This document shows positions 10,703 to 54,655 of a stretch of 64,000 nucleotides of DNA, piece after piece. This stretch comes from Acipenser ruthenus (Eukaryota): contig NC_081212.1 of assembly GCF_902713425.1 (NCBI RefSeq), forward strand, positions 10,100,261-10,164,260, written 5' to 3'. Under the pieces are notes generated by a model, which made no database searches, was not told where the DNA came from, and worked only from the letters and a program-made list of their open reading frames with translations. Both the position numbers and the translations under genes were made by a program. How positions within the stretch are numbered: position 1 is the stretch's first letter; each line of letters opens with the position of its first letter.

Positions 10703-11420
10703 CAGCACGGCATATTTTTTTCACTGTATGTATTTATTCTCCCCAGGTAAACAGCCACCCAACCAGAACGATGTATTTGTAGTGTGCATGGTGCATTGTC
10801 AATGCAAGTCTGACTGTATATTAAACGGAGTGAGAATGCACTCTGCAACGTTTTGGCTTCGACTGCTGCTTGACTCACAGAAACGACAATGTTGATACTC
10901 TGACTCTTCTTCTTAAAATGCATGTTAAAATGCGGAATGTTTTCAAATTCCATGAATTCGCAGGTCTGTACAGAACAAGACGACTATCTGGTCTCACAAA
11001 ATGTTGCTGGTTCTCGTAGAACAAAGAAGAGTTTGATCAACTATGTCATTCATGCCGACAAAGCTCAGGAGGGCGATCGTTAGGTTGAATATCTAAATTT
11101 CCCGGGTTATATCCCGAGTTTCGACAGATGTCAGTTTATTCATATACCTACAGAATCACAGGTACAAATATTGCAGTTAAAGTTTATGCTTTTCAAATCC
11201 GTGCACGAAAGGGGGTGCCCAAATCAGAATAAAAGTCACGAGGGGAGTAATCAAAACATCGCAAAAGAAAAATACACTGCATTAAACAAATCATTTGGAG
11301 CGGTCTAAAATGAGCAATCCAGGTTCGATTCATTGTTTTGCCCTTTCGATGGCAGCAGTGTAAAAAAATGACCTGCACATTTCTCTGCTGGCTTCGGGTA
11401 GCAAACAAGAAGCAGTGATT

Positions 11421-11493
11421 TCCCATATGATCTAGTGGTTACGATTCCCGTTTTTTCACCCAGGTGACCAGGGTTCAACTCCCTGTATGCGAA
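11421..11493 (+). pseudogene. tRNA-Glu(TTC)-like relic
   Basis: As 7718 copy. Confidence 0.55.
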
Positions 11494-11882
11494 TTCATTT
11501 ATTTACTTGTGGAGGTAATTGTCAGATAAAAGGATTGAAAAATGAAACCCCACATTGTAGGATGGGGAGACTTATAACTAGTGACCATTATATAAAAAAA
11601 ATAAATAACGTTTGCTTATGTTAGATGCAAGAGAGCGAGACAGATAGATTTGCATCTTGGTATCCCATCACTCCTATGTGCACCAAAGCAATGACGGTCT
11701 ACACTTCAGTTCATATATAATCGGAATAAAAAAGTGGACTCTGTTGCATTGTGAGGCTGCAGTGTCGATAACATAAACCTCTACGTTTGAGGGATCATTT
11801 AACTGTACTGTATTATATCCAAAATGGGTAATCGGCACTGTATGCTTAGAGCGCAACACACGGATCGTTTAATAAGCAACAT

Positions 11883-11955
11883 GTTTCCATAGTGTAGTGG
11901 TTATCACGTTCGCCTCACACGCGAAAGGTCCCCGGTTCGAAACCGGGTGGAAACA
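11883..11955 (+). tRNA. tRNA-Val(CAC)
   Basis: Canonical sequence, in a 1.25-kb variant unit. Confidence 0.9.
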
Positions 11956-12673
11956 CAGCACGGCATATTTTTTTCACTGTATGTATTTATTCTCCCCAGG
12001 TAAACAGCCACCCAACCAGAACGATGTATTTGTAGTGTGCATGGTGCATTGTCAATGCAAGTCTGACTGTATATTAAACGGAGTGAGAATGCACTCTGCA
12101 ACGTTTTGGCTTCGACTGCTGCTTGACTCACAGAAACGACAATGTTGATACTCTGACTCTTCTTCTTAAAATGCATGTTAAAATGCGGAATGTTTTCAAA
12201 TTCCATGAATTCGCAGGTCTGTACAGAACAAGACGACTATCTGGTCTCACAAAATGTTGCTGGTTCTCGTAGAACAAAGAAGAGTTTGATCAACTATGTC
12301 ATTCATGCCGACAAAGCTCAGGAGGGCGATCGTTAGGTTGAATATCTAAATTTCCCGGGTTATATCCCGAGTTTCGACAGATGTCAGTTTATTCATATAC
12401 CTACAGAATCACAGGTACAAATATTGCAGTTAAAGTTTATGCTTTTCAAATCCGTGCACGAAAGGGGGTGCCCAAATCAGAATAAAAGTCACGAGGGGAG
12501 TAATCAAAACATCGCAAAAGAAAAATACACTGCATTAAACAAATCATTTGGAGCGGTCTAAAATGAGCAATCCAGGTTCGATTCATTGTTTTGCCCTTTC
12601 GATGGCAGCAGTGTAAAAAAATGACCTGCACATTTCTCTGCTGGCTTCGGGTAGCAAACAAGAAGCAGTGATT

Positions 12674-12746
12674 TCCCATATGATCTAGTGGTTACGATTC
12701 CCGTTTTTTCACCCAGGTGACCAGGGTTCAACTCCCTGTATGCGAA
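12674..12746 (+). pseudogene. tRNA-Glu(TTC)-like relic
   Basis: As 7718 copy. Confidence 0.55.
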
Positions 12747-13925
12747 TTCATTTATTTACTTGTGGAGGTAATTGTCAGATAAAAGGATTGAAAAATGAAA
12801 CCCCACATTGTAGGATGGGGAGACTTATAACTAGTGACCATTATATAAAAAAAATAAATAACGTTTGCTTATGTTAGATGCAAGAGAGCGAGACAGATAG
12901 ATTTGCATCTTGGTATCCCATCACTCCTATGTGCACCAAAGCAATGACGGTCTACACTTCAGTTCATATATAATCGGAATAAAAAAGTGGACTCTGTTGC
13001 ATTGTGAGGCTGCAGTGTCGATAACATAAACCTCTACGTTTGAGGGATCATTTAACTGTACTGTATTATATCGCAGTAACTTGCCCACCGGCAAGTCAAA
13101 TGTCTTTGCTGTAGGGGGTAGCATTTAGTTATCCCAAGTTCTGTAGCTTTGCGCAGTGGCAGTATCATAGCCCATGAGGTTTGTCCGAGGCGTGATTATT
13201 GCTAGTTGAAAACTTTAACCAATACCCCGCCGTGGTGACTTGAAATATAGTCGCCGCTGGCAATTTTTGACAGTCTCACAGAGTCTGCTATCATGTAGTT
13301 GAAAGAACAGAACAAATGTTGACGCTTTGACATTCTGGGTTTGGTTTTGTATTCTACTGATTGGGCACAACATTTGAGTTGATCTTTTTACTCTTTATAA
13401 CATACAAGTGTATTTACAAGGTTAGGGGCCGTTTCTCCTGTTGTGTCAATTATATTACTATGCAGCTGGCAGGCATTCGGAACGCGCACGCTAACAACGC
13501 GTCATCTTTCATTTTACAAAACACGGGGCATTCGACACGGAGAAAACCTTCTAGACAAATACTAAAAGAGCTAAACATCAATTTGCCTCCCCAGCCATGT
13601 TAATAGATATCTGGCTTTTTTGCAGTAGCATTAAAGTTGTGGTGACACACGAAAAAGAAACATGGAAATCTGTTTTGGGGTTGGGGAGTTAACCTACCAA
13701 ACAATTTACGCACATGAATATATCATGAAAACAGCCATGCATGGAGGTCATGGGAACTCTCCGTTCTATTGCTTTCCTTTCTCCCAGATATATCATGCAC
13801 ATTATGTAACTTCTCTTCAAAGGCAATTTTAGTATTCAGACTGTAGTTGCAAAAATAATACAATATCTTTTGACTAGAGTTCATCTTTTAAAAACAACTA
13901 CTTTGCCAACAGAAGAAAAAAAGGC

Positions 13926-14135: not shown

Positions 14136-14207
14136 TGTTTCCACCCGGTTTCGAACCGGGGACTTTTCGCGTGTTAGGCGAAGAGATAACCACTACACTA
14201 TGGAAAC
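14136..14207 (-). tRNA. tRNA-Val(AAC)-derived, likely non-functional (1-nt D-arm deletion)
   Basis: 72 nt. The D-arm region reads ATCTCTTCGCC instead of ATCACGTTCGCC, and there is a variable-loop G->A change. Confidence 0.6.
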
Positions 14208-14334: not shown

Positions 14335-14407
14335 GTTTCCATAGTGTAGTGGTTATCACGTTCGCCTCACACGCGAAAGGTCCCCGGTTCGAAACCGGGT
14401 GGAAACA
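14335..14407 (+). tRNA. tRNA-Val(CAC)
   Basis: Canonical sequence. Confidence 0.9.
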
Positions 14408-15126
14408 CAGCACGGCATATTTTTTTCACTGTATGTATTTATTCTCCCCAGGTAAACAGCCACCCAGACCAGAACGATGTATTTGTAGTGTGCATGGTGC
14501 ATTGTCAATGCAAGTCTGACTGTATATTAAACGGAGTGAGAATGCACTCTGCAACGTTTTGGCTTCGACTGTTGCTTGACTCACAGAAACGACAATGTTG
14601 ATACTCTGACTCTTCTTCTTAAAATGCATTTTAAAATGCGGAATGTTTTCAAATTCCATGAATTCGCAGGTCTGTACAGAACAACACGACTATCTGGTCT
14701 CACAAAATGTTGCTGGTTCTCGTAGAACAAAGAAGAGTTTGATCAACTATGTCATTCATGCCGACAAAGCTCAGGAGGGCGATCGTTAGGTTGAATATCT
14801 AAATTTCCCGGGTTATATCCCGAGTTTCGACAGATGTCAGTTTATTCATATACCTACAGAATCACAGGTACAAATATTGCAGTTAAAGTTTATGCTTTTC
14901 AAATCCGTGCACGAAAGGGGGTGCCCAAATCAGAATGAAAGTCACGGGGGGAGTAATCAAAACATCGCAAAAGAAAAATACACTGCATTAAACAAATCAT
15001 TTGGAGCGGTCTAAAATGAGCAATCCAGGTTCGATTCATTGTTTTGCCCTTTCGATGGCAGCAGTGTAAAAAAATGACCTGCACATTTCTCTGCTGGCTT
15101 CGGGTAGCAAACAAGAAGCAGCGATT

Positions 15127-15199
15127 TCCCATATGATCTAGTGGTTACGATTCCCGTTTTTTCACCCAGGTGACCAGGGTTCAACTCCCTGTATGCGAA
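15127..15199 (+). pseudogene. tRNA-Glu(TTC)-like relic
   Basis: As 7718 copy. Confidence 0.55.
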
Positions 15200-16376
15200 T
15201 TCATTTATTTACTTGTGGAGGTAATTGTGAGATAAAAGGATTGAAAAATGAAACCCCACATTGTAGGATGGGGAGACTTATAACTAGTGACCATTATATA
15301 AAAAATAAATAACGTTTGCTTATGTTAGATGCAAGAGAGCGAGACAGATAGATTTGCATCTTGGTATCCCATCACTCCTATGTGCACCAAAGCAATGACG
15401 GTCTACACTTCAGTTCATATATAATCGGAATAAAAAAGTGGACTCTGTTGCATTGTGAGGCTGCAGTGTCGATAACATAAACCTCTACGTTTGAGGGATC
15501 ATTTAACTGTACTGTATTATATCGCAGTAACTTGCCCACCGGCAAGTCAAATGTCTTTGCTGTAGGGGGTAGCATTTAGTTATCCCAAGTTCTGTAGCTT
15601 TGCGCAGTGGCAGTATCATAGCCCATGAGGTTTGTGCGAGGCGTGATTATTGCTAGTTGAAAACTTTAACCAATACCCCGCCGTGGTGACTTGAAATATA
15701 GTCGCCGCTGGCAATTTTTGACAGTCTCACAGAGTCTGCTATCATGTAGTTGAAAGAACAGAACAAATGTTGACGCTTTGACATTCTGGGTTTGGTTTTG
15801 TATTCTACTGATTGGGCACAACATTTGAGTTGATATTTTTACTCTTTATAACATACAAGTGTATTTACAAGGTTAGGGGCCGTTTCTCCTGTTGTGTCAA
15901 TTATATTACTATGCAGCTGGCAGGCATTCGGAACGCGCACGCTAACAACGCGTCATCTTTCATTTTACAAAACACGGGGCATTCGACACGGAGAAAACCT
16001 TCTAGACAAATACTAAAAGAGCTAAACATCAATTTGCCTCCCCAGCCATGTTAATAGATATCTGGCTTTTTTGCAGTAGCATTAAAGTTGTGGTGACACA
16101 CGAAAAAGAAACATGGAAATCTGTTTTGGGGTTGGGGAGTTAACCTACCAAACAATTTACGCACATGAATATATCATGAAAACAGCCATGCATGGAGGTC
16201 ATGGGAACTCTCCGTTCTATTGCTTTCCTTTCTCCCAGATATATCATGCACATTATGTAACTTCTCTTCAAAGGCAATTTTAGTATTCAGACTGTAGTTG
16301 CAATAATAATACAATATCTTTTGACTAGAGTTCATCTTTTAAAAACAACTACTTTGCCAACAGAAGAAAAAAAGGC

Positions 16377-16449
16377 TAACAGAAAACGGTTTCGCTCCGT
16401 CGACCTCTGGGTTATAAGGCTCAGCACGCTTCCGCTGCGCCACTCTGAT
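16377..16449 (-). pseudogene. iMet-like tRNA relic
   Basis: As 6520 copy, with an extra + strand AGAAGACGG->AGAAAACGG change. Lies in a 1.52-kb variant unit. Confidence 0.55.
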
Positions 16450-16647
16450 ACAGCTGCTTCTGGAATGAAACACCCATTAATAAAATAAAATAAACTGCAT
16501 ACACTGCATTAAACAAATCATTTGGAGCGGTCTAAAATGAGCAATCCAGGTTCGATTCATTGTTTTGCCCTTTCGATGGCAGCAGTGTAAAAAAATGACC
16601 TGCACATTTCTCTGCTGGCTTCGGGTAGCAAACAAGAAGCAGCGATT

Positions 16648-16720
16648 TCCCATATGATCTAGTGGTTACGATTCCCGTTTTTTCACCCAGGTGACCAGGG
16701 TTCAACTCCCTGTATGCGAA
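16648..16720 (+). pseudogene. tRNA-Glu(TTC)-like relic
   Basis: As 7718 copy. Lies in a 1.52-kb variant unit. Confidence 0.55.
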
Positions 16721-17899
16721 TTCATTTATTTACTTGTGGAGGTAATTGTCAGATAAAAGGATTGAAAAATGAAACCCCACATTGTAGGATGGGGAGACTT
16801 ATAACTAGTGACCATTATATAAAAAAAATAAATAACGTTTGCTTATGTTAGATGCAAGAGAGCGAGACAGATAGATTTGCATCTTGGTATCCCATCACTC
16901 CTATGTGCACCAAAGCAATGACGGTCTACACTTCAGTTCATATATAATCGGAATAAAAAAGTGGACTCTGTTGCATTGTGAGGCTGCAGTGTCGATAACA
17001 TAAACCTCTACGTTTGAGGGATCATTTAACTGTACTGTATTATATCGCAGTAACTTGCCCACCGGCAAGTCAAATGTCTTTGCTGTAGGGGGTAGCATTT
17101 AGTTATCCCAAGTTCTGTAGCTTTGCGCAGTGGCAGTATCATAGCCCATGAGGTTTGTCCGAGGCGTGATTATTGCTAGTTGAAAACTTTAACCAATACC
17201 CCGCCGTGGTGACTTGAAATATAGTCGCCGCTGGCAATTTTTGACAGTCTCACAGAGTCTGCTATCATGTAGTTGAAAGAACAGAACAAATGTTGACGCT
17301 TTGACATTCTGGGTTTGGTTTTGTATTCTACTGATTGGGCACAACATTTGAGTTGATCTTTTTACTCTTTATAACATACAAGTGTATTTACAAGGTTAGG
17401 GGCCGTTTCTCCTGTTGTGTCAATTATATTACTATGCAGCTGGCAGGCATTCGGAACGCGCACGCTAACAACGCGTCATCTTTCATTTTACAAAACACGG
17501 GGCATTCGACACGGAGAAAACCTTCTAGACAAATACTAAAAGAGCTAAACATCAATTTGCCTCCCCAGCCATGTTAATAGATATCTGGCTTTTTTGCAGT
17601 AGCATTAAAGTTGTGGTGACACACGAAAAAGAAACATGGAAATCTGTTTTGGGGTTGGGGAGTTAACCTACCAAACAATTTACGCACATGAATATATCAT
17701 GAAAACAGCCATGCATGGAGGTCATGGGAACTCTCCGTTCTATTGCTTTCCTTTCTCCCAGATATATCATGCACATTATGTAACTTCTCTTCAAAGGCAA
17801 TTTTAGTATTCAGACTGTAGTTGCAAAAATAATACAATATCTTTTGACTAGAGTTCATCTTTTAAAAACAACTACTTTGCCAACAGAAGAAAAAAAGGC

Positions 17900-17972
17900 T
17901 AACAGAAGACGGTTTCGCTCCGTCGACCTCTGGGTTATAAGGCTCAGCACGCTTCCGCTGCGCCACTCTGAT
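17900..17972 (-). pseudogene. iMet-like tRNA relic
   Basis: As 6520 copy. Confidence 0.55.
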
Positions 17973-18105
17973 ACAGCTGCTTCTCGAATGAAACACCCAT
18001 TAATAAAATAAAATAAATCAATCAATTCTCAGTGCAACTTTTTGACACAGTCAGCTGCTGGACTCACAGAGAGCGGAGACCGCAACAAAAAAACGAACAA
18101 GCACA

Positions 18106-18178
18106 TGTTTCCACCCGGTTTCGAACCGGGGACCTTTCGCGTGTTAGGCGAACGTGATAACCACTACACTATGGAAAC
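18106..18178 (-). tRNA. tRNA-Val(AAC)
   Basis: Canonical. Confidence 0.9.
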
Positions 18179-18305
18179 TTTCACATGTACATTGTTACAT
18201 TCAGCTGGGCTTTAAGTGAAGACTGCCTTGCACTGCAGGATCCAAAATGGGTAATCGGCACTGTATGCTTAGAGCGCAACACACGGATCATTTAATAAGC
18301 AACAT

Positions 18306-24730: not shown

Positions 24731-24803
24731 GTTTCCATAGTGTAGTGGTTATCACGTTCGCCTCACACGCGAAAGGTCCCCGGTTCGAAACCGGGTGGAA
24801 ACA
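24731..24803 (+). tRNA. tRNA-Val(CAC)
   Basis: Canonical sequence. Confidence 0.9.
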
Positions 24804-25521
24804 CAGCACGGCATATTTTTTTCACTGTATGTATTTATTCTCCCCAGGTAAACAGCCACCCAACCAGAACGATGTATTTGTAGTGTGCATGGTGCATTGT
24901 CAATGCAAGTCTGACTGTATATTAAACGGAGTGAGAATGCACTCTGCAACGTTTTGGCTTCGACTGCTGCTTGACTCACAGAAACGACAATGTTGATACT
25001 CTGACTCTTCTTCTTAAAATGCATGTTAAAATGCGGAATGTTTTCAAATTCCATGAATTCGCAGGTCTGTACAGAACAAGACGACTATCTGGTCTCACAA
25101 AATGTTGCTGGTTCTCGTAGAACAAAGAAGAGTTTGATCAACTATGTCATTCATGCCGACAAAGCTCAGGAGGGCGATCGTTAGGTTGAATATCTAAATT
25201 TCCCGGGTTATATCCCGAGTTTCGACAGATGTCAGTTTATTCATATACCTACAGAATCACAGGTACAAATATTGCAGTTAAAGTTTATGCTTTTCAAATC
25301 CGTGCACGAAAGGGGGTGCCCAAATCAGAATAAAAGTCACGAGGGGAGTAATCAAAACATCGCAAAAGAAAAATACACTGCATTAAACAAATCATTTGGA
25401 GCGGTCTAAAATGAGCAATCCAGGTTCGATTCATTGTTTTGCCCTTTCGATGGCAGCAGTGTAAAAAAATGACCTGCACATTTCTCTGCTGGCTTCGGGT
25501 AGCAAACAAGAAGCAGCGATT

Positions 25522-25594
25522 TCCCATATGATCTAGTGGTTACGATTCCCGTTTTTTCACCCAGGTGACCAGGGTTCAACTCCCTGTATGCGAA
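25522..25594 (+). pseudogene. tRNA-Glu(TTC)-like relic
   Basis: As 7718 copy. Confidence 0.55.
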
Positions 25595-26774
25595 TTCATT
25601 TATTTACTTGTGGAGGTAATTGTCAGATAAAAGGATTGAAAAATGAAACCCCACATTGTAGGATGGGGAGACTTATAACTAGTGACCATTATATAAAAAA
25701 AATAAATAACGTTTGCTTATGTTAGATGCAAGAGAGCGAGACAGATAGATTTGCATCTTGGTATCCCATCACTCCTATGTGCACCAAAGCAATGACGGTC
25801 TACACTTCAGTTCATATATAATCGGAATAAAAAAGTGGACTCTGTTGCATTGTGAGGCTGCAGTGTCGATAACATAAACCTCTACGTTTGAGGGATCATT
25901 TAACTGTACTGTATTATATCGCAGTAACTTGCCCACCGGCAAGTCAAATGTCTTTGCTGTAGGGGGTAGCATTTAGTTATCCCAAGTTCTGTAGCTTTGC
26001 GCAGTGGCAGTATCATAGCCCATGAGGTTTGTCCGAGGCGTGATTATTGCTAGTTGAAAACTTTAACCAATACCCCGCCGTGGTGACTTGAAATATAGTC
26101 GCCGCTGGCAATTTTTGACAGTCTCACAGAGTCTGCTATCATGTAGTTGAAAGAACAGAACAAATGTTGACGCTTTGACATTCTGGGTTTGGTTTTGTAT
26201 TCTACTGATTGGGCACAACATTTGAGTTGATCTTTTTACTCTTTATAACATACAAGTGTATTTACAAGGTTAGGGGCCGTTTCTCCTGTTGTGTCAATTA
26301 TATTACTATGCAGCTGGCAGGCATTCGGAACGCGCACGCTAACAACGCGTCATCTTTCATTTTACAAAACACGGGGCATTCGACACGGAGAAAACCTTCT
26401 AGACAAATACTAAAAGAGCTAAACATCAATTTGCCTCCCCAGCCATGTTAGTAGATATCTGGCTTTTTTGCAGTAGCATTAAAGTTGTGGTGACACACGA
26501 AAAAGAAACATGGAAATCTGTTTTGGGGTTGGGGAGTTAACCTACCAAACAATTTACGCACATGAATATATCATGAAAACAGCCATGCATGGAGGTCATG
26601 GGAACTCTCCGTTCTATTGCTTTCCTTTCTCCCAGATATATCATGCACATTATGTAACTTCTCTTCAAAGGCAATTTTAGTATTCAGACTGTAGTTGCAA
26701 AAATAATACAATATCTTTTGACTAGAGTTCATCTTTTAAAAACAACTACTTTGCCAACAGAAGAAAAAAAAGGC

Positions 26775-26847
26775 TAACAGAAGACGGTTTCGCTCCGTCG
26801 ACCTCTGGGTTATAAGGCTCAGCACGCTTCCGCTGCGCCACTCTGAT
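26775..26847 (-). pseudogene. iMet-like tRNA relic
   Basis: As 6520 copy. Confidence 0.55.
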
Positions 26848-26983
26848 ACAGCTGCTTCTCGAATGAAACACCCATTAATAAAATAAAATAAATCAATCAA
26901 TTCTCAGTGCAACTTTTTGACGCAGTCTGCTGCTGGACTCACAGAGAGCGGAGAAGACCGCAACAAAAAAACGAACAAGCACA

Positions 26984-27056
26984 TGTTTCCACCCGGTTTC
27001 GAACCGGGGACCTTTCGCGTGTTAGGCGAACGTGATAACCACTACACTATGGAAAC
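26984..27056 (-). tRNA. tRNA-Val(AAC)
   Basis: Canonical. Confidence 0.9.
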
Positions 27057-27183
27057 TTTCACATGTACATTGTTACATTCAGCTGGGCTTTAAGTGAAGA
27101 CTGCCTTGCACTGCAGGATCCAAAATGGGTAATCGGCACTGTATGCTTAGAGCGCAACACACGGATCGTTTGTTAAGCAACAT

Positions 27184-30884: not shown

Positions 30885-30957
30885 GTTTCCATAGTGTAGT
30901 GGTTATCACGTTCGCCTCACACGCGAAAGGTCCCCGGTTCGAAACCGGGTGGAAACA
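30885..30957 (+). tRNA. tRNA-Val(CAC)
   Basis: Canonical sequence, in a 1.25-kb variant unit immediately upstream of retrotransposon copy 2. Confidence 0.9.
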
Positions 30958-31644
30958 CAGCACGGCATCTTTTTTTCACTGTATGTATTTATTCTCCCCA
31001 GGTAAACAGCCACCCAGACCAGAACGATGTATTTGTAGTGTGCATGGTGCATTGTCAATGCAAGTCTGACTGTATATTAAACGGAGTGAGAATGCACTCT
31101 GCAACGTTTTGGCTTCGACTGCTGCTTGACTCACAGAAACGACAATGTTGATACTCTGACTCTTCTTCTTAAAATGCATGTTAAAATGCGGAATGTTTTC
31201 AAATTCCATGAATTCGCAGGTCTGTACAGAACAAGACGACTATCTGGTCTCACAAAATGTTGCTGGTTCTCGTAGAACAAAGAAGAGTTTGATCAACTAT
31301 GTCATTCATGCCGACAAAGCTCAGGAGGGCGATCGTTAGGTTGAATATCTAAATTTCCCGGGTTATATCCCGAGTTTCGACAGATGTCAGTTTATTCATA
31401 TACCTACAGAATCACAGGTACAAATATTGCAGTTAAAGTTTATGCTTTTCAAATCCGTGCACGAAAGGGGGTGCCCAAATCAGAATGAAAGTCACGGGGG
31501 GAGTAATCAAAACATCGCAAAAGAAAAATACACTGCATTAAACAAATCATTTGGAGCGGTCTAAAATGAGCAATCCAGGTTCGATTCATTGTTTTGCCCT
31601 TTCGATGGCAGCAGTGTAAAAAAATGACCTGCACATTTCTCTGC

Positions 31645-31760
31645 CCAGGCCAGCGTGAGCACCTTCTTGTACAGAAAAAATAAAGGAACACTTAATTAGA
31701 ATAAGTGTACGCGTGCCGTTTCTCTGAGTCAATAATTAGAAAGTTATTGAGTTTATCACA
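31645..31760 (+). repeat. Truncated 5' LTR of copy 2 (3'-terminal 116 bp only)
   Basis: Corresponds to 1018..1133 of the copy 1 LTR. The upstream 145 bp of LTR is absent. Confidence 0.8.
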
Positions 31761-31762
31761 TT

Positions 31763-31774
31763 TGGCGACGAGGA
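31763..31774 (+). promoter_or_regulatory. Primer binding site (tRNA-Ser(GCU)-type), copy 2
   Basis: TGGCGACGAGGA lies 2 nt after the LTR end, identical to copy 1. Confidence 0.5.
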
Positions 31775-31872
31775 GTAAAAAAAAATAATAAAAAAAAAAT
31801 AATATAAAAAAAAAACAAAAAAACAAAAAAACACCTAGAAGCAGGCTACACTTCGGACGGCAATGGCGACTT

Positions 31873-34800
31873 TTGGAAGCATTGGAGAGTTTGATGAGAG
31901 CACTGACTGGACGGCTTGGACACTACTTCGCAGCAAATGATATTACTGATGGAGGTAAACAGCGCTCTATATTTCTAAGTGTCTGCTGTCCGAAAACGTA
32001 CAGTCTCATCAGGAATCTGGTATCGCCATTGAAACCTACTGATAAGAGTTTTGCTGAACTGTGCTTAATTGTTAAACAGCATAAAAACCCTAAACCGTCA
32101 GAGATTGTGCAGACTTTTAAATTTCACAATAGGTTTCGGCAACCAGGGGAATCTGTGCCAACTTATGTAGCCGAATTGAGACGGTTGTCTGAACATTGTG
32201 TTTTCGGGGCGATGCTGGATAGGATGCTGCGTGACAGGTTGGTATGCGGCTTGCAAGATGACCGCATTCAGCTCCGTTTGTTATCGGAAACCGCGTTGGA
32301 TTTTAAGAAGGCTGTGGAGATTGCTCAAGCCATGGAGGCTGCTGCGCAACAAGCTCACGATCTTAAACCGACCGCCTCAACACCACCTGTGATTCACAAG
32401 GCGATCGCAGTTGGTTCTCCTGCGATAGACTGCAGACAGGGTGAAGGGAAAAATATGTGTTACCGCTGTGGACAGCCACATGCTGCAAGAGACTGTAGAT
32501 TCAAGGACGCTGTTTGCCATAACTACAATAAGAAGGGTCACATTGCAAAAGTGTGTCGCAGTAAAAATCAGCCATGCCAACAAAGAGGGGGCTGGCAACC
32601 CAAGATGCCTAAAGCTACGCATAGCTTAGAAGGGGAGGTAGATGAAGACGAACCTGAGGTTGTTTACAGTATGCACCAAGCAAAAACAGAGAAAGTAGAG
32701 CCTATTTATGTGACTGTGAAGGCGCAAGGGGAAGAATTGCAAATGGAAGTTGATACAGGGGCGTCATTCACAGTTATCAGTGAGAGCACGTACAGAGGCA
32801 CGTGGCATGGCAAACAGTTACCCCCACTCAGTAAGTCTGCCATCAAGCTGCACACGTATACAGGAGAAGAAATTAAAGTCATAGGCATCATTGCAGTGGA
32901 AGTGCAGTATAACCAGCAATCATGCATGCTACCAATACTGATAGTGTTTGGTAATGGACCTAGTTTGCTAGGACGGAACTGGCTGAAGAAGCTCAAGCTG
33001 GATTGGTCTAACTTGTATCATATGGGAACTACTAGTGTGCAAGACATTTTAAACAGATATGCAGTTGTGTTTCGGGATGAACTGGGAACTTTGAGAGGAA
33101 CTAAGGCTGTCATTGAAGTGGACGGAAACGTTAAGCCCAGATTCTTCAAAGCCCGTACAGTACCGTATGCATTAAAAGAAAAAGTCAGTGCTGAACTGCA
33201 GAGATTGCAAAAGGCAGGCATCATTGAACCTGTTCAGTTTTCGAAGTGGGCTGCTCCTATTGTGCCAATTATGAAGCCAGATGGGTCAATACGTATTTGT
33301 GGCGATTATAAACTGACAGTGAACCAGGCCTCCAGACTGGATGCTTATCCAATTCCGCGAGTGGAAGATTTATTCTCCAACATTACAGGGGGGCAAGCCT
33401 TTACAAAGCTGGACCTGAGCCATGCCTACCAGCAGCTGCTCCTGGAGGACAGTTCTAAGGAAGTTTTGACCATCAACACGCACAAGGGGTTGTTCCGCTA
33501 CACCAGGTTGCCTTTTGGGGTGTCATCAGCTCCAGGTATTTTCCAACGCACCCTGGAAAGCCTGCTAGCAGGTTTGCCCCACGTTCTCGTGTATCTGGAT
33601 GACATCCTCATAACAGGTCCTGACCCGTCAAAACACATGCAAGTTTTGGAAGAAGTTTTGAAGCGGCTTGCTGATGCAGGATTGAGACTAAAAAAACAAA
33701 AGTGCATTTTCCTAGTGCCAGAGGTGCAGTATTTAGGTCACAAGATTGACGCAGAGGGCATACACCCAGCAGAGGAGAAGGTCCGGGCAATAGTGGAAGC
33801 TCCGACGCCCAAGAATACCACAGAGTTGAAGTCATTTTTAGGGATGGTAAACTATTACCATCGTTTTCTGCCAAATTTATCAACGCTGTTGTCACCATTG
33901 CATCATCTACTACAGAAGAAGGTGCCATGGTGTTGGAAACCACAGCAGGAGAAAGCTTTCCAGTCAGCAAAGAAGCTTTTGCTAACATCACAATTGTTAG
34001 TACATTTCGACTCCAAGAAACCATTGCTCCTGGCATGCGATGCATCACCCTATGGAGTGGGAGCAGTGTTATCGCACACCCTGCCTGATGGAAGTGAAAG
34101 ACCAATAAGTTTTGCGTCCCGCACTTTGGCTCCAGCTGAAAAAAACTATTCTCAGCTGGATAAAGAAGCCCTCGCCATTGTGTTTGGGGTAAAAAAGTTC
34201 CATCAGTACCTGTATGGACACCATTTCACTATTTGCTCGGACCACAAGCCCTTGATGAGCCTTTTCAGCGAGAGCAAGTTGATTCCACCGATGGCTTCAG
34301 GGAGAATTCAACGGTGGCCGTTATTGCTTGCTGGTTATGAGTATGAGATACGCTACAAGAGTGGAGAGACACACAGTAATGCTGATGGACTGAGTCGTTT
34401 GCCACTGAAGGATACACCCTCACATGTGCAAACACCAGGGGATGTGGTTTTGTTACTGGAAAACCTCTCCACTTTCCCTGTCAACCTAGGGCAAATACAG
34501 TCAGGAACCAGAAGAGACCCTATATTGTCGCGAGTCCTGACATACGTGAGAAGTGGATGGCCAGCAGAAGCCGAGATGGAAGATCTGAGGCCGTATTTTA
34601 GAAGGAAGGAGGAGTTAAGTATCCAAGACAATTGTTTACTTTGGGGAAACAGAGTCATTGTACCTCCGCAAAGCCAGGAGAAAGTTATTGCTGAACTTCA
34701 TGAAGCACACCCGGGCATATCTCGCATGAAGAGCCTAGCAAGAAGTATGGTGTGGTGGCCTTGCATGGACCAAGCCTTGGAGAAAAAGGTTAGAGAATGT

Positions 34801-35793
34801 ACCATTTGCCAGAGCACACGCCATGCACCGCCACCGGCACCGCTACACCCGTGGGAGTGGCCTGACAGACCGTGGGCCCGTCTGCATGTGGATTATGCAG
34901 GTCCATTTATGGGGAAGATGTTCTTGATCCTTATTGATGCCCACTCCAAGTGGATAGATGTTCATGTTATGTCTTCTGCTACTTCTCAAGCTACCATAAG
35001 TCAACTGCGGGTTACATTTGCAACGCATGGGCTGCCCGAGATGCTAGTGACAGATAATGGAACAGCATTTACTAGCGAAGAGTTCCAGCAGTTTTGTAAG
35101 AAAAATAGCATTAAGCATGTCAGAACATCACCTTACCACCCTGCATTCAATGGGCTAGCCGAAAGAGCCGTGCAGACGGTAAAGGAGGGGTTAAAGAAAA
35201 TGAGGACTGGCACAATTGAAACCAAGTTGGCCAGGTTTTTGTTCCATTACAGAATCACACCTCAAACCACAACTGGGTCATCGCCGGCAGAATTACTGAT
35301 GGGACGTAGACCACGATCGTGTTTTGATGTGCTGAGACCAGCAGTGGGAGGGAGAGTGAGAGCTGCGCAAGCTAAGCAGAAGTTTCAACATGATCAACAC
35401 GCCAAAGTTCGCTTATTGAATGTAGGAGATACTGTTTATGTTCGAATGTTTGGAGTGGAGGATAAGTGGACACAAGGAACCATACTGGAGAAAGTGGGTC
35501 CAGTGTCATTCCAAGTGGAACTGACAGATGGGAGAGTGATTCGCCGTCATCAAGACCACCTAAGGAAATATCAGGCAGCGACCGTTCCACAATCTGAAAG
35601 ACCAGAGGATGTCCAAGTTCCTTTGGGAGATGACTACAGCCCTAACCCAGTGCAGTTAGAGTTTTCAACAGAGGGGGTTCCAGTAGACCCAGAGCCAGCA
35701 GTAGATCCAGGGCCAGAACCAACATTAGCCCCGGCACCAGAGTTGCGCCGTTCACAAAGAGCGCGTAGAGCTCCACAGAAACTGGACTGTTAG
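31873..35793 (+). CDS. Intact gag-pol polyprotein (1306 aa) of copy 2: Gag, CCHC knuckle, aspartic protease, RT, RNase H, integrase
   Basis: Single uninterrupted ORF. Zinc knuckle 32458..32496. DTGAS 32749..32766. RT with YLDD 33592..33603 (domain ~33055..33732). RNase H ~34015..34407. Integrase HHCC ~34699..34809 and D,D35E core ~34891..35163. GPY/F-like C-terminal module, no chromodomain. Order PR-RT-RH-IN makes it Ty3/Gypsy. Confidence 0.9.
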   Translation: MEALESLMRALTGRLGHYFAANDITDGGKQRSIFLSVCCPKTYSLIRNLVSPLKPTDKSFAELCLIVKQHKNPKPSEIVQTFKFHNRFRQPGESVPTYVAELRRLSEHCVFGAMLDRMLRDRLVCGLQDDRIQLRLLSETALDFKKAVEIAQAMEAAAQQAHDLKPTASTPPVIHKAIAVGSPAIDCRQGEGKNMCYRCGQPHAARDCRFKDAVCHNYNKKGHIAKVCRSKNQPCQQRGGWQPKMPKATHSLEGEVDEDEPEVVYSMHQAKTEKVEPIYVTVKAQGEELQMEVDTGASFTVISESTYRGTWHGKQLPPLSKSAIKLHTYTGEEIKVIGIIAVEVQYNQQSCMLPILIVFGNGPSLLGRNWLKKLKLDWSNLYHMGTTSVQDILNRYAVVFRDELGTLRGTKAVIEVDGNVKPRFFKARTVPYALKEKVSAELQRLQKAGIIEPVQFSKWAAPIVPIMKPDGSIRICGDYKLTVNQASRLDAYPIPRVEDLFSNITGGQAFTKLDLSHAYQQLLLEDSSKEVLTINTHKGLFRYTRLPFGVSSAPGIFQRTLESLLAGLPHVLVYLDDILITGPDPSKHMQVLEEVLKRLADAGLRLKKQKCIFLVPEVQYLGHKIDAEGIHPAEEKVRAIVEAPTPKNTTELKSFLGMVNYYHRFLPNLSTLLSPLHHLLQKKVPWCWKPQQEKAFQSAKKLLLTSQLLVHFDSKKPLLLACDASPYGVGAVLSHTLPDGSERPISFASRTLAPAEKNYSQLDKEALAIVFGVKKFHQYLYGHHFTICSDHKPLMSLFSESKLIPPMASGRIQRWPLLLAGYEYEIRYKSGETHSNADGLSRLPLKDTPSHVQTPGDVVLLLENLSTFPVNLGQIQSGTRRDPILSRVLTYVRSGWPAEAEMEDLRPYFRRKEELSIQDNCLLWGNRVIVPPQSQEKVIAELHEAHPGISRMKSLARSMVWWPCMDQALEKKVRECTICQSTRHAPPPAPLHPWEWPDRPWARLHVDYAGPFMGKMFLILIDAHSKWIDVHVMSSATSQATISQLRVTFATHGLPEMLVTDNGTAFTSEEFQQFCKKNSIKHVRTSPYHPAFNGLAERAVQTVKEGLKKMRTGTIETKLARFLFHYRITPQTTTGSSPAELLMGRRPRSCFDVLRPAVGGRVRAAQAKQKFQHDQHAKVRLLNVGDTVYVRMFGVEDKWTQGTILEKVGPVSFQVELTDGRVIRRHQDHLRKYQAATVPQSERPEDVQVPLGDDYSPNPVQLEFSTEGVPVDPEPAVDPGPEPTLAPAPELRRSQRARRAPQKLDC

Positions 35794-35861
35794 TTTAGTT
35801 GTTCCTAGCTACGTAAGTGTTGAAATTGAATGTAAGATAAAAACAAGACCAGTTTTAATCT

Positions 35862-35873
35862 GAGGTGGAGGGA
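35862..35873 (+). promoter_or_regulatory. Polypurine tract (copy 2)
   Basis: GAGGTGGAGGGA immediately before the 3' LTR. Confidence 0.6.
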
Positions 35874-36135
35874 TGTGGAATATTGATAGTTAGTCCCCTG
35901 GGTTTTAGTTACGTTTTATTCCAGTTGAGTTATTGTAACATGATCCCTGGTACAGCTCCAATAGCTGAAGGGGTCATGGGTCATGGGGAGCCATGTCCTG
36001 CACAGATTCTAGTTCCAGCCCAGGCTAGCGTGAGCACCTTCTTGTACAGAAAAAATAAAGGAACACTTAATTAGAATAAGTGTACGCGTGCCGTTTCTCT
36101 GAGTCAATAATTAGAAAGTTATTGAGTTTATCACA
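35874..36135 (+). repeat. 3' LTR of copy 2
   Basis: Identical in its LTR-specific SNPs to 5245..5506. Followed by TTATCCCATCACTCC. Confidence 0.85.
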
Positions 36136-37148
36136 TTATCCCATCACTCCTATGTGCACCAAAGCAATGACGGTCTACACTTCAGTTCATATATAATCGG
36201 AATAAAATAATGGACTCTGTTGAATTGTGAGGCTGCAGTGTCGATAATATAAACCTCTACGTTTGAGGGATCATTTAACTGTACTGTATTATATAGCAGT
36301 AACTTGCCCACCGGCAAGTCAAATGTCTTTGCTGTAGGGGGTAGCATTTAGTTATCCCAAGTTCTGTAGCTTTGCGCAGTGGCAGTATCATAGCCCATGA
36401 GGTTTGTCCGAGGCGTGATTATTGCTAGTTGAAAACTTTAACCAATACCCCGCCGTGGTGACTTGAAATATAGTCGCCGCTGGCAATTTTTGACAGTCTC
36501 ACAGAGTCTGCTATCATGTAGTTGAAAGAACAGAACAAATGTTGACGCTTTGACATTCTGGGTTTGGTTTTGTATTCTACTGATTGGGCACAACATTTGA
36601 GTTGATCTTTTTACTCTTTATAACATACAAGTGTATTTACAAGGTTAGGGGCCGTTTCTCCTGTTGTGTCAATTATATTACTATGCAGCTGGCAGGCATT
36701 CGGAACGCGCACGCTAACAACGCGTCATCTTTCATTTTACAAAACACGGGGCATTCGACACGGAGAAAACCTTCTAGACAAATACTAAAAGAGCTAAACA
36801 TCAATTTGCCTCCCCAGCCATGTTAATAGATATCTGGCTTTTTTGCAGTAGCATTAAAGTTGTGGTGACACACGAAAAAGAAACATGGAAATCTGTTTTG
36901 GGGTTGGGGAGTTAACCTACCAAACAATTTACGCACATGAATATATCATGAAAACAGCCATGCATGGAGGTCATGGGAACTCTCCGTTCTATTGCTTTCC
37001 TTTCTCCCAGATATATCATGCACATTATGTAACTTCTCTTCAAAGGCAATTTTAGTATTCAGACTGTAGTTGCAAAAATAATACAATATCTTTTGACTAG
37101 AGTTCATCTTTTAAAAACAACTACTTTGCCAACAGAAGAAAAAAAGGC

Positions 37149-37221
37149 TAACAGAAGACGGTTTCGCTCCGTCGACCTCTGGGTTATAAGGCTCAGCACG
37201 CTTCCGCTGCGCCACTCTGAT
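37149..37221 (-). pseudogene. iMet-like tRNA relic
   Basis: As 6520 copy. Confidence 0.55.
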
Positions 37222-37357
37222 ACAGCTGCTTCTGGAATGAAACACCCATTAATAAAATAAAATAAATCAATCAATTCTCAGAGCAACTTTTTGACGCAGT
37301 CTGCTGCTGGACTCACAGAGAGCGGAGAAGACCGCAACAAAAAAACGAACAAGCACA

Positions 37358-37430
37358 TGTTTCCACCCGGTTTCGAACCGGGGACCTTTCGCGTGTTAGG
37401 CGAACGTGATAACCACTACACTATGGAAAC
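37358..37430 (-). tRNA. tRNA-Val(AAC)
   Basis: Canonical. Confidence 0.9.
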
Positions 37431-37557
37431 TTTCACATGTACATTGTTACATTCAGCTGGGCTTTAAGTGAAGACTGCCTTGCACTGCAGGATCCAAAAT
37501 GGGTAATCGGCACTGTATGCTTAGAGCGCAACACACGGATCATTTAATAAGCAACAT

Positions 37558-37630
37558 GTTTCCATAGTGTAGTGGTTATCACGTTCGCCTCACACGCGAA
37601 AGGTCCCCGGTTCGAAACCGGGTGGAAACA
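37558..37630 (+). tRNA. tRNA-Val(CAC)
   Basis: Canonical sequence. Confidence 0.9.
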
Positions 37631-38349
37631 CAGCACGGCATCTTTTTTTCACTGTATGTATTTATTCTCCCCAGGTAAACAGCCACCCAGACCAGAACGA
37701 TGTATTTGTAGTGTGCATGGTGCATTGTCAATGCAAGTCTGACTGTATATTAAACGGAGTGAGAATGCACTCTGCAACGTTTTGGCTTCGACTGCTGCTT
37801 GACTCACAGAAACGACAATGTTGATACTCTGACTCTTCTTCTTAAAATGCATTTTAAAATGCGGAATGTTTTCAAATTCCATGAATTCGCAGGTCTGTAC
37901 AGAACAAGACGACTATCTGGTCTCACAAAATGTTGCTGGTTCTCGTAGAACAAAGAAGAGTTTGATCAACTATGTCATTCATGCCGACAAAGCTCAGGAG
38001 GGCGATCGTTAGGTTGAATATCTAAATTTCCCGGGTTATATCCCGAGTTTCGACAGATGTCAGTTTATTCATATACCTACAGAATCACAGGTACAAATAT
38101 TGCAGTTAAAGTTTATGCTTTTCAAATCCGTGCACGAAAGGGGGTGCCCAAATCAGAATGAAAGTCACGGGGGGAGTAATCAAAACATCGCAAAAGAAAA
38201 ATACACTGCATTAAACAAATCATTTGGAGCGGTCTAAAATGAGCAATCCAGGTTCGATTCATTGTTTTGCCCTTTCGATGGCAGCAGTGTAAAAAAATGA
38301 CCTGCACATTTCTCTGCTGGCTTCGGGTAGCAAACAAGAAGCAGCGATT

Positions 38350-41262: not shown

Positions 41263-41335
41263 GTTTCCATAGTGTAGTGGTTATCACGTTCGCCTCACAC
41301 GCGAAAGGTCCCCGGTTCGAAACCGGGTGGAAACA
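41263..41335 (+). tRNA. tRNA-Val(CAC)
   Basis: Canonical sequence, in a 1.25-kb variant unit. Confidence 0.9.
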
Positions 41336-42053
41336 CAGCACGGCATATTTTTTTCACTGTATGTATTTATTCTCCCCAGGTAAACAGCCACCCAACCAGA
41401 ACGATGTATTTGTAGTGTGCATGGTGCATTGTCAATGCAAGTCTGACTGTATATTAAACGGAGTGAGAATGCACTCTGCAACGTTTTGGCTTCGACTGCT
41501 GCTTGACTCACAGAAACGACAATGTTGATACTCTGACTCTTCTTCTTAAAATGCATGTTAAAATGCGGAATGTTTTCAAATTCCATGAATTCGCAGGTCT
41601 GTACAGAACAAGACGACTATCTGGTCTCACAAAATGTTGCTGGTTCTCGTAGAACAAAGAAGAGTTTGATCAACTATGTCATTCATGCCGACAAAGCTCA
41701 GGAGGGCGATCGTTAGGTTGAATATCTAAATTTCCCGGGTTATATCCCGAGTTTCGACAGATGTCAGTTTATTCATATACCTACAGAATCACAGGTACAA
41801 ATATTGCAGTTAAAGTTTATGCTTTTCAAATCCGTGCACGAAAGGGGGTGCCCAAATCAGAATAAAAGTCACGAGGGGAGTAATCAAAACATCGCAAAAG
41901 AAAAATACACTGCATTAAACAAATCATTTGGAGCGGTCTAAAATGAGCAATCCAGGTTCGATTCATTGTTTTGCCCTTTCGATGGCAGCAGTGTAAAAAA
42001 ATGACCTGCACATTTCTCTGCTGGCTTCGGGTAGCAAACAAGAAGCAGTGATT

Positions 42054-42126
42054 TCCCATATGATCTAGTGGTTACGATTCCCGTTTTTTCACCCAGGTGA
42101 CCAGGGTTCAACTCCCTGTATGCGAA
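42054..42126 (+). pseudogene. tRNA-Glu(TTC)-like relic
   Basis: As 7718 copy. Confidence 0.55.
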
Positions 42127-42515
42127 TTCATTTATTTACTTGTGGAGGTAATTGTCAGATAAAAGGATTGAAAAATGAAACCCCACATTGTAGGATGGGG
42201 AGACTTATAACTAGTGACCATTATATAAAAAAAATAAATAACGTTTGCTTATGTTAGATGCAAGAGAGCGAGACAGATAGATTTGCATCTTGGTATCCCA
42301 TCACTCCTATGTGCACCAAAGCAATGACGGTCTACACTTCAGTTCATATATAATCGGAATAAAAAAGTGGACTCTGTTGCATTGTGAGGCTGCAGTGTCG
42401 ATAACATAAACCTCTACGTTTGAGGGATCATTTAACTGTACTGTATTATATCCAAAATGGGTAATCGGCACTGTATGCTTAGAGCGCAACACACGGATCG
42501 TTTAATAAGCAACAT

Positions 42516-42588
42516 GTTTCCATAGTGTAGTGGTTATCACGTTCGCCTCACACGCGAAAGGTCCCCGGTTCGAAACCGGGTGGAAACA
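42516..42588 (+). tRNA. tRNA-Val(CAC)
   Basis: Canonical sequence, in a 1.25-kb variant unit. Confidence 0.9.
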
Positions 42589-43307
42589 CAGCACGGCATC
42601 TTTTTTTCACTGTATGTATTTATTCTCCCCAGGTAAACAGCCACCCAGACCAGAACGATGTATTTGTAGTGTGCATGGTGCATTGTCAATGCAAGTCTGA
42701 CTGTATATTAAACGGAGTGAGAATGCACTCTGCAACGTTTTGGCTTCGACTGCTGCTTGACTCACAGAAACGACAATGTTGATACTCTGACTCTTCTTCT
42801 TAAAATGCATGTTAAAATGCGGAATGTTTTCAAATTCCATGAATTCGCAGGTCTGTACAGAACAAGACGACTATCTGGTCTCACAAAATGTTGCTGGTTC
42901 TCGTAGAACAAAGAAGAGTTTGATCAACTATGTCATTCATGCCGACAAAGCTCAGGAGGGCGATCGTTAGGTTGAATATCTAAATTTCCCGGGTTATATC
43001 CCGAGTTTCGACAGATGTCAGTTTATTCATATACCTACAGAATCACAGGTACAAATATTGCAGTTAAAGTTTATGCTTTTCAAATCCGTGCACGAAAGGG
43101 GGTGCCCAAATCAGAATGAAAGTCACGGGGGGAGTAATCAAAACATCGCAAAAGAAAAATACACTGCATTAAACAAATCATTTGGAGCGGTCTAAAATGA
43201 GCAATCCAGGTTCGATTCATTGTTTTGCCCTTTCGATGGCAGCAGTGTAAAAAAATGACCTGCACATTTCTCTGCTGGCTTCGGGTAGCAAACAAGAAGC
43301 AGCGATT

Positions 43308-43380
43308 TCCCATATGATCTAGTGGTTACGATTCCCGTTTTTTCACCCAGGTGACCAGGGTTCAACTCCCTGTATGCGAA
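43308..43380 (+). pseudogene. tRNA-Glu(TTC)-like relic
   Basis: As 7718 copy. Confidence 0.55.
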
Positions 43381-44559
43381 TTCATTTATTTACTTGTGGA
43401 GGTAATTGTCAGATAAAAGGATTGAAAAATGAAACCCCACATTGTAGGATGGGGAGACTTATAACTAGTGACCATTATATAAAAAAAATAAATAACGTTT
43501 GCTTATGTTAGATGCAAGAGAGCGAGACAGATAGATTTGCATCTTGGTATCCCATCACTCCTATGTGCACCAAAGCAATGACGGTCTACACTTCAGTTCA
43601 TATATAATCGGAATAAAAAAGTGGACTCTGTTGCATTGTGAGGCTGCAGTGTCGATAACATAAACCTCTACGTTTGAGGGATCATTTAACTGTACTGTAT
43701 TATATCGCAGTAACTTGCCCACCGGCAAGTCAAATGTCTTTGCTGTAGGGGGTAGCATTTAGTTATCCCAAGTTCTGTAGCTTTGCGCAGTGGCAGTATC
43801 ATAGCCCATGAGGTTTGTCCGAGGCGTGATTATTGCTAGTTGAAAACTTTAACCAATACCCCGCCGTGGTGACTTGAAATATAGTCGCCGCTGGCAATTT
43901 TTGACAGTCTCACAGAGTCTGCTATCATGTAGTTGAAAGAACAGAACAAATGTTGACGCTTTGACATTCTGGGTTTGGTTTTGTATTCTACTGATTGGGC
44001 ACAACATTTGAGTTGATCTTTTTACTCTTTATAACATACAAGTGTATTTACAAGGTTAGGGGCCGTTTCTCCTGTTGTGTCAATTATATTACTATGCAGC
44101 TGGCAGGCATTCGGAACGCGCACGCTAACAACGCGTCATCTTTCATTTTACAAAACACGGGGCATTCGACACGGAGAAAACCTTCTAGACAAATACTAAA
44201 AGAGCTAAACATCAATTTGCCTCCCCAGCCATGTTAATAGATATCTGGCTTTTTTGCAGTAGCATTAAAGTTGTGGTGACACACGAAAAAGAAACATGGA
44301 AATCTGTTTTGGGGTTGGGGAGTTAACCTACCAAACAATTTACGCACATGAATATATCATGAAAACAGCCATGCATGGAGGTCATGGGAACTCTCCGTTC
44401 TATTGCTTTCCTTTCTCCCAGATATATCATGCACATTATGTAACTTCTCTTCAAAGGCAATTTTAGTATTCAGACTGTAGTTGCAAAAATAATACAATAT
44501 CTTTTGACTAGAGTTCATCTTTTAAAAACAACTACTTTGCCAACAGAAGAAAAAAAGGC

Positions 44560-52130: not shown

Positions 52131-52202
52131 TGTTTCCACCCGGTTTCGAACCGGGGACCTTTCGCGTGTTAGGCGAAGAGATAACCACTACACTATGGAA
52201 AC
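52131..52202 (-). tRNA. tRNA-Val(AAC)-derived, likely non-functional (1-nt D-arm deletion)
   Basis: Same GGCGAAGAGATAACC variant as the 14136 copy. 72 nt. Confidence 0.6.
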
Positions 52203-54583: not shown

Positions 54584-54655
54584 TGTTTCCACCCGGTTTC
54601 GAACCGGGGACCTTTCGCGTGTTAGGCGAAGAGATAACCACTACACTATGGAAAC
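54584..54655 (-). tRNA. tRNA-Val(AAC)-derived, likely non-functional (1-nt D-arm deletion)
   Basis: Same variant as 52131. 72 nt. Confidence 0.6.

Follow-up and report, generated by a model that had tools for sequence, protein, structure and literature searches.

The stretch analysed here, 64,000 nucleotides of a sterlet (Acipenser ruthenus) chromosome (NC_081212.1, positions 10,100,261 to 10,164,260 of the forward strand; hereafter "the window"), holds a tandem array of small-RNA genes in which a Ty3/Gypsy long terminal repeat (LTR) retrotransposon is found twice, once with both of its LTRs (copy 1) and once truncated at its 5' end (copy 2). An earlier note on this DNA had singled out the long gag-pol frame of copy 2 (31873-35793, plus strand) as apparently intact and possibly active, and had taken the near-identity of the two copies as a sign that the element, or at least the locus, is young. 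The frame is a Ty3/Gypsy gag-pol lying inside the array, as attested by the order of its Pfam domains, its match to Ty3 Gag-Pol and the mapping of the array units; it is very probable, however, that both copies represent one old insertion of a compact Ty3/Gypsy element, which has decayed, was passively duplicated along with the array, and is not active.

The open frame and the element around it

An open reading frame (ORF) check of the window confirmed 1306 uninterrupted codons without a stop at 31873-35793 (+), and the open frame reaches upstream to a TAA at 31789-31791. The length of 1306 amino acids, however, cannot be retained for the protein, as this frame starts at a TTG only under an ORF definition of the bacterial style, 1299 amino acids are obtained from the first in-frame ATG (31894), and the ATG actually used by the family, at 31863, is out of frame. 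The Pfam domains succeed each other as RVP, RVT_1, RT_RNaseH, Integrase_H2C2 and rve, which is the Ty3/Gypsy order, the nearest solved structure is that of Ty3 Gag-Pol (7q5b, E=1e-99), and by this pol order and homology the long frame belongs to an LTR retrotransposon of the Ty3/Gypsy group (Metaviridae).

Catalytic residues of the protease (PR), reverse transcriptase (RT), RNase H and integrase (IN) are all kept, comprising the PR motif DTGA at residue 294, the RT motifs (the Asp of LDL at 514 and YLDD at 574), the RNase H acidic residues D723, E765, D790 and D838, the IN zinc site (H943, H946, C976 and C979) and the IN catalytic triad (D1007, D1061 and E1097), followed by a GPY/F-like module reading GPVSF at 1209. 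The C-terminus beyond GPVSF is low-complexity and Pro-rich, and Pfam detected no chromodomain there, on which ground membership in the chromoviruses was rejected. From ATG 31894 the product is identical to XP_058855246.1 of Acipenser ruthenus; the ORF is thus already in RefSeq under an automatic name, and the element is a typical decaying Ty3/Gypsy copy of 4.6 kb that has LTRs of roughly 262-264 bp, encodes gag and pol in one ORF and lacks a chromodomain. In the literature, "K02A2.6" proved to be a generic automatic label only, which carries no clade assignment.

The features of the two copies are as follows.

Copy 1
872-5508, +: the whole of copy 1, an LTR retrotransposon of 4637 bp with both LTRs (self-BLAST, LTR alignment)
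867-871, no strand: putative 5' copy of the target-site duplication (TSD), CTATC (array-unit comparison)
872-1135, +: 5' LTR, TGTG...CACA and then TT, with CCAAT at LTR nucleotide (nt) 85 and AATAAA at nt 181
1136-1146, +: primer-binding site (PBS), TGGCGACGAGG, 2 nt beyond the LTR, the same 11-mer as follows the 5' LTR in the distant relatives L001 and L002
1236-1313, +: canonical gag ATG with a dead-end ORF of 25 codons, identical to copy 2 here
1246-4680, +: gag-pol frame, ended early, with a 2-bp (AA) deletion after 4591
5233-5244, +: polypurine tract (PPT), GAGGTGGAGGGA, abutting the 3' LTR (sequence reading)
5245-5508, +: 3' LTR, identical to that of copy 2 (alignment)
5507-5511, no strand: putative 3' TSD copy, TTATC, matching the 5' copy at 4/5 positions (copy 2 equivalent 36136-36140)

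Copy 2
31643-36137, +: the whole of copy 2, the same insertion, 5'-truncated, lying 30627 bp further along than copy 1
31643-31762, +: 5' LTR remnant (LTR nt 145-264, 120 nt), carrying the 5'-LTR-specific C at LTR nt 153
31763-31773, +: PBS, then an A-rich leader
31863-31940, +: canonical gag start and short ORF, reading MATFGSIGEFDESTDWTAWTLLRSK up to its stop
31873-35793, +: long frame of 1306 codons, first in-frame ATG (31894) in a weak context
32515-32556, +: second zinc knuckle of gag, canonically CX2CX4HX4C, with Cys218 replaced by Tyr (codon 32524-32526, TAC)
35146-35148, +: integrase codon 1092, Phe (S1092F), where 119/119 relatives have S or T
35862-35873, +: PPT (sequence reading)
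35874-36137, +: 3' LTR (alignment)

No TATA box was present in the copy 1 5' LTR, which differs from its 3' counterpart at 3/264 positions (nt 117, 121 and 153; 98.9% identity). As the earlier note had stated, copy 1 has both LTRs and a pol frameshift (the AA deletion, at codon 1116, shifts the integrase frame downstream of the catalytic Glu, so that the IN C-terminus with its GPY/F module is missing), and copy 2 lacks the 5' part of its 5' LTR. Of the 419 bp deleted from copy 2, 275 bp were array flank, with a tRNA-like sequence among them, and the rest was LTR nt 1-144; the junction shows GC microhomology. The only CCAAT box of the LTR was lost in this way, and the AATAAA at LTR nt 181 was kept. 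Besides copies 1 and 2, the window contains no solo LTRs or further fragments of the element. The empty target site is GTATC in 24/24 other array units. Between the PBS, which would pair with the 3' terminus of vertebrate tRNA-Ser-GCT (CCTCGTCGCCA), and the gag ATG lies an A-rich, low-complexity leader of roughly 75 nt (tract 31774-31862, in copy 1 1147-1235), as opposed to the leader of about 8 nt seen in L001 and L002.

Like the Ty3 of Saccharomyces cerevisiae (7q5b, 4ol8), the sterlet element presents PR-RT-RNaseH-IN over about 740 residues with conserved catalytic Asp/Glu, has LTRs, a PBS and a PPT, and belongs to a family whose members make a 5-bp TSD; unlike Ty3, it has gag and pol in a single ORF with no frameshift between them, and the copy in the window is defective. 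With the Mag family (Mag, SURL and the Jule of Xiphophorus, which is about 4.8 kb long and has LTRs of about 200 bp) it shares the compact build, the short LTRs and the absence of a chromodomain. The lineage is probably Mag/Jule-like: a layout that is compact and has a single ORF, together with relatives among fishes and echinoderms, would suggest the Mag/Jule/SURL lineage (described in PMC8220671), features that are compatible with such a placement rather than defining it.

Damage seen against the sterlet paralogues

The best protein match of the frame, at 99% identity, is from Acipenser ruthenus itself, and its 90% cluster consists of five RefSeq members, all of them from this species. Two distant relatives, available with their genomic flanks, complete the comparison.

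P0122, XP_058855246.1: 1299 aa; no residue differs from the window ORF from Met8 on
P0121, XP_058855147.1: 1299 aa, encoded on the same chromosome, with a single differing residue; the lineage's third copy, located outside the window
P0001, XP_058872250.1: 1314 aa, on another chromosome
P0124, XP_058858521.1: 1314 aa, on another chromosome
P0123, XP_058890643.1: 1193 aa, on another chromosome
L001: LTR of 341 bp, 100% LTR-LTR identity, perfect TSD ACGCC, PBS core TGGCGACGAGG
L002: LTR of 203 bp, 100% LTR-LTR identity, perfect TSD CTTGC, PBS core TGGCGACGAGG

Because P0122 is identical to the ORF from Met8, the window is sterlet DNA. P0121 carries every lesion described below, and its RefSeq accession is 99 numbers from that of copy 2. 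P0001 and P0124 share 98.7% identity with the window ORF along 1293 residues and are three residues apart from each other. The additional copies that the earlier note had proposed to search for do exist, two of them fully intact. In L001 and L002 a single gag-pol ORF begins with MAT a few nucleotides after the PBS. The closest relatives with identities of 50-58% come from fishes and echinoderms (Asterias, Holothuria), and among the 120 best protein matches listed none falls between 58% and 99% identity. In the sterlet, the family has the look of an isolated one with few copies; alternatively, copies in other sturgeons may be repeat-masked and unannotated.

It is the comparison with P0001 and P0124 that exposes the fate of the gag start. 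The family ATG at 31863 has a G at both -3 and +4, a strong context, and the 25-codon peptide read from it stops at 31938-31940, with RLGHYFAANDI resuming in a frame other than its own. P0001 and P0124 begin MATFGSIGEFDESTDWTEYVERLGHYFAANDI (their start being MATFGSIGEFDESTDWTEYVERLGHYF, with the in-frame N-terminus MATFGSIGEFDESTDWTEYVE kept), and the lengths relative to them call for exactly a 14-nt deletion in copy 2 at about 31912/31913, where GACTGGAC is followed directly by GGCTT. The N-terminus that is thereby separated from the rest of gag, MAT.G...W.EY.ER, is conserved (M, G, W and Y columns) in 116/119 distant relatives, the alignment of relatives used throughout comprising 119 sequences with 50-58% identity to the window ORF. 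ATG 31863 is thus out of frame with gag-pol because of the 14-nt deletion, and the RefSeq model of 1299 amino acids begins at an internal Met because the canonical start is frameshifted. The context of this first in-frame ATG, at 31894, is weak (T at -3, A at +4); as the upstream ORF of 25 codons encloses it, the scanning model would let it be reached by leaky scanning only. The same 14-nt lesion is present in copy 1 (junction at about 1285/1286).

The claim that all motifs are present stands for pol and for half of the CCHC array of gag: knuckle 1, of the variant form CX2CX3HX4C, is there, and the second knuckle reads CHNYN...H...C, having lost the second Cys (C218), which is Cys in 119/119 relatives. 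The inactivating substitutions, the finding of which the earlier note would have accepted as an end to its idea, were encountered in gag, and not at the catalytic residues of pol. C218Y belongs with a larger set of derived changes, 16 residues at which the window lineage stands alone against a state common to three independent sterlet paralogues. Among them, G39C in gag replaces a residue that is G in 118/119 relatives; A816P, in the C-terminal part of the RNase H region, stands where 119/119 relatives have A, S or G; and S1092F is situated in the active-site loop of integrase, five residues ahead of the catalytic E1097, where its alignment partner in PFV IN is the first Ser of the PQSSG loop. 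For R134L, A96P and R327H the residues of the window are almost never found in the family. Over the columns that are at least 95% conserved (n=242) the window deviates at 7 and P0001 and P0124 at 1, and in the pol part of these columns there is no deviation of the window. At least 5/16 of the changes (R235C, R327H, T352M, A615V and A641V) would, to judge from the derived codons, fit single CpG transitions, if each arose in a single step. P0001 and P0124 retain Cys218, Gly39, Ala816 and Ser1092 and, to judge from their sequences, are plausible active members of the family.

Taken with its truncated LTR, copy 2 cannot be expected to make a normal Gag or to promote its own transcription.

One insertion, duplicated with the array

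In both copies the element occupies the same place in the array unit (about 1031-1035), with the same junctions, the 5' LTR remnant of copy 2 and the 5' LTR of copy 1 have the 5'-specific variant at LTR nt 153 in common, and the 14-nt gag deletion and all 16 derived substitutions are common to the two as well. Their 3' flanks are colinear over 11 kb with 99.55% identity, and the pattern of long and short array units following each copy is the same. Because the site, the junctions, the 3' LTRs, the LTR variant, the flank and the unit pattern all agree, copies 1 and 2 are a single integration that was later duplicated, within a block of at least 16.5 kb of array and at an offset of 30627 bp; two independent insertions at the same site were rejected because of the shared LTR variant, the shared lesions and the colinear flank.

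The two copies do differ at only a handful of positions, as the earlier note had it, the differences inside the element being a single substitution, at 1159/31786 of the A-rich leader, and an indel of 2 bp. The conclusion drawn there, that the element is young, does not follow: one substitution in about 4.5 kb between the copies, as against 1.1% between the LTRs, makes the duplication younger than the insertion, roughly at least 25-fold, so the near-identity of the copies marks a young array, not a young element. The LTRs themselves do not speak for a recent transposition either, with 3/264 differences where those of L001 and L002 are 100% identical.

The flank immediately downstream (5509-7568 vs 36138-38200) has 9 substitutions and one 3-bp indel in 2.06 kb, about 20 times the rate seen in the element interior, a contrast that suggests ongoing sequence exchange (gene conversion) from one array unit to another, with the element left out of it.

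The array into which the element inserted is a mixed small-RNA gene array, with 21 U4, 21 U7 and 41 tRNA-Val genes in the window, and its units are built as listed below.

24731-27183: canonical unit, 2453 bp, with tRNA-Val-CAC (+) and tRNA-Val-AAC (-)
25522-25594, +: weak tRNA-like sequence (equivalent 629-702), in every unit
25993-26132, +: U4 snRNA, full-length (117 bits)
26372-26428, -: U7 snRNA (42.6 bits vs a gathering score of 34)
26775-26847, -: second weak tRNA-like sequence of the canonical unit
10630-11882, 11883-13135, 30885-32136, 41263-42515, 42516-43768 and similar: short units, deletion derivatives

The weak tRNA-like sequence at 629-702 and 25522-25594, presumably a degenerate tRNA-Glu-TTC, is probably a pseudogene; such sequences score 29-36 bits in Rfam, receive no ARAGORN call and have a T-run in the anticodon region. 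In the short units of 1252 bp, unit nt 1-1190 are joined to 2388-2453, with the loss of U4, U7 and tRNA-Val-AAC, and units at a spacing of 3971 bp (e.g., 14335-18305) have a partial internal duplication of unit nt 643-2160. The tRNA-Val-AAC genes at 14136-14207, 52131-52202 and 54584-54655 are one nucleotide shorter and score 48-49 instead of 65 bits; these three may be decaying gene copies.

Two tempting links between the element and its surroundings were considered and rejected. Targeting of Pol III start sites in the manner of Ty3 does not agree with an insertion 961 bp downstream of tRNA-Val-CAC and 169 bp downstream of the weak tRNA-like sequence, 230 bp upstream of U4 and about 1.2 kb away from the convergent tRNA-Val-AAC (a single insertion event). 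Helenus elements, non-autonomous LTR elements bearing tRNA-Val-CAC, were described in the sterlet with a proposed mobilisation by Gypsy elements; animal Helenus do not exceed 1263 bp and make TSDs of 4 bp, with His, Leu or Lys primers in the vertebrate families (PMC10886601). The host and the tRNA-Val-CAC-like sequence are the same as here; unlike Helenus, the array unit is 2453 bp long and contains genuine tRNA, U4 and U7 genes, and the PBS of the Gypsy element is a different one. An array of Helenus-type elements with the Gypsy element as autonomous partner was rejected on these grounds, given also that the unit has no internal direct repeats and that the TSD length differs, and no link between the sterlet Gypsy element and Helenus was found.

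Probable neutral decay, competing readings and the proposed history

From the LTR divergence (3/264, 1.1%) about 22 substitutions would be expected in the ORF since the insertion, 15-16 of them nonsynonymous, where 16 private amino-acid changes are observed, although an estimate built on only three LTR differences has a 95% CI of 3-47 expected amino-acid changes. The probability that no stop would have arisen by chance over this time is 0.34-0.43, and the open frame of copy 2 survives by chance. The changes appear fully compatible with unconstrained decay, as judged from these counts.

The breadth of that interval weighs against our reading of a decayed, inactive element, and other points do likewise. 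The catalytic residues of pol are intact and no stop has appeared in 3.9 kb, and Pol made from copy 2 might retain some activity; the consequences ascribed to C218Y, S1092F, G39C and A816P are those that conservation would predict. NCBI annotates exactly the product from ATG 31894, and leaky scanning to this ATG could deliver a Gag-Pol minus about 21 N-terminal residues. P0121, if it lies outside the array, could be a daughter mobilised in trans.

One alternative, which we hold to be unlikely, is a low-copy family that is currently or was very recently active in the sterlet, the lesion-bearing array lineage having been trans-mobilised at least once, with XP_058855147.1 as the daughter; it draws on the mere three residues between two intact 1314-aa copies of different chromosomes and on the gap between 58% and 99% identity among the matches listed. 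Were this so, the copies in the array would be a dated marker, and the insertion would be older, by a factor of at least about 25, than the time-scale on which blocks of the U4/U7/tRNA-Val array are amplified.

Less probable still, in our judgement, is that the copy, its gag being crippled, serves as a functional source of Pol, or as an RNA template mobilised in trans by elements of the P0001/P0124 type, P0121 again being a daughter. The intact catalytic columns of pol, the full 5' LTR, PBS, PPT and 3' LTR of copy 1, the existence of intact 1314-aa paralogues, and a P0121 that shares all lesions at 99 accession numbers from copy 2 would accommodate it; S1092F and A816P, however, strike invariant positions of pol, the amino-acid changes match the neutral expectation, and the array duplication demonstrated for copies 1 and 2 is a simpler origin for a third copy.

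That copy 2 is intact, young and possibly autonomous, wanting only a promoter, and that copy 1 could complement it, as the earlier note had it in calling the two defective in complementary ways, is now very hard to uphold. It has on its side the uninterrupted frame, the complete pol motifs and the 99.9% identity of the copies, yet the canonical start is out of frame through a 14-nt deletion in both, the invariant Cys of the zinc knuckle is lost together with three more changes in invariant columns (S1092F included), the LTRs are 1.1% apart where those of L001 and L002 are 100% identical, and the identity of the copies is explained by block duplication, not by transposition. As the gag frameshift, the 16 substitutions and every other gag defect are common to both copies, neither can complement the other.

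A frame kept open by selection, as a domesticated or exapted host gene of Gypsy origin, is extremely improbable: 1306 codons without a stop and a protein-coding annotation in RefSeq would recommend it, against LTRs, PBS, PPT and a putative TSD that are still in place, changes that fall on invariant residues in a number equal to the neutral expectation, a chance of about 0.4 that no stop would arise, a frameshifted sister copy 1, and no ortholog at 58-99% identity among the matches listed.

The history of the decayed, passively duplicated insertion, as read directly from the sequence, begins with an integration at GTATC in the array spacer, about 170 bp downstream of the tRNA-like sequence and 230 bp upstream of the U4 snRNA gene, and continues with unconstrained decay, during which the 14-nt deletion, the 16 amino-acid substitutions and the three LTR-LTR differences accumulated. 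The duplication that gave copies 1 and 2 came much later and took in the element with at least 16.5 kb of array, presumably by unequal exchange within the array, and the third copy, XP_058855147.1, outside the window, may well have come from an array duplication of the same kind. After the duplication, copy 1 lost its 2 bp in integrase, and copy 2 the 419 bp that cover its upstream flank and U3 wholly or for the most part. The candidates for autonomous members of the family are the 1314-aa copies, intact and located on other chromosomes.

For those who judge retrotransposons by their reading frames, the lesson is that an open frame with all its catalytic motifs is no evidence of an active element: the frameshifted start and the lost zinc ligand were exposed by the comparison with paralogues and were invisible from the ORF reading alone. 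For the sterlet array, a very recent duplication of multi-unit blocks is marked by one dated insertion of which at least 2-3 near-identical copies now exist.

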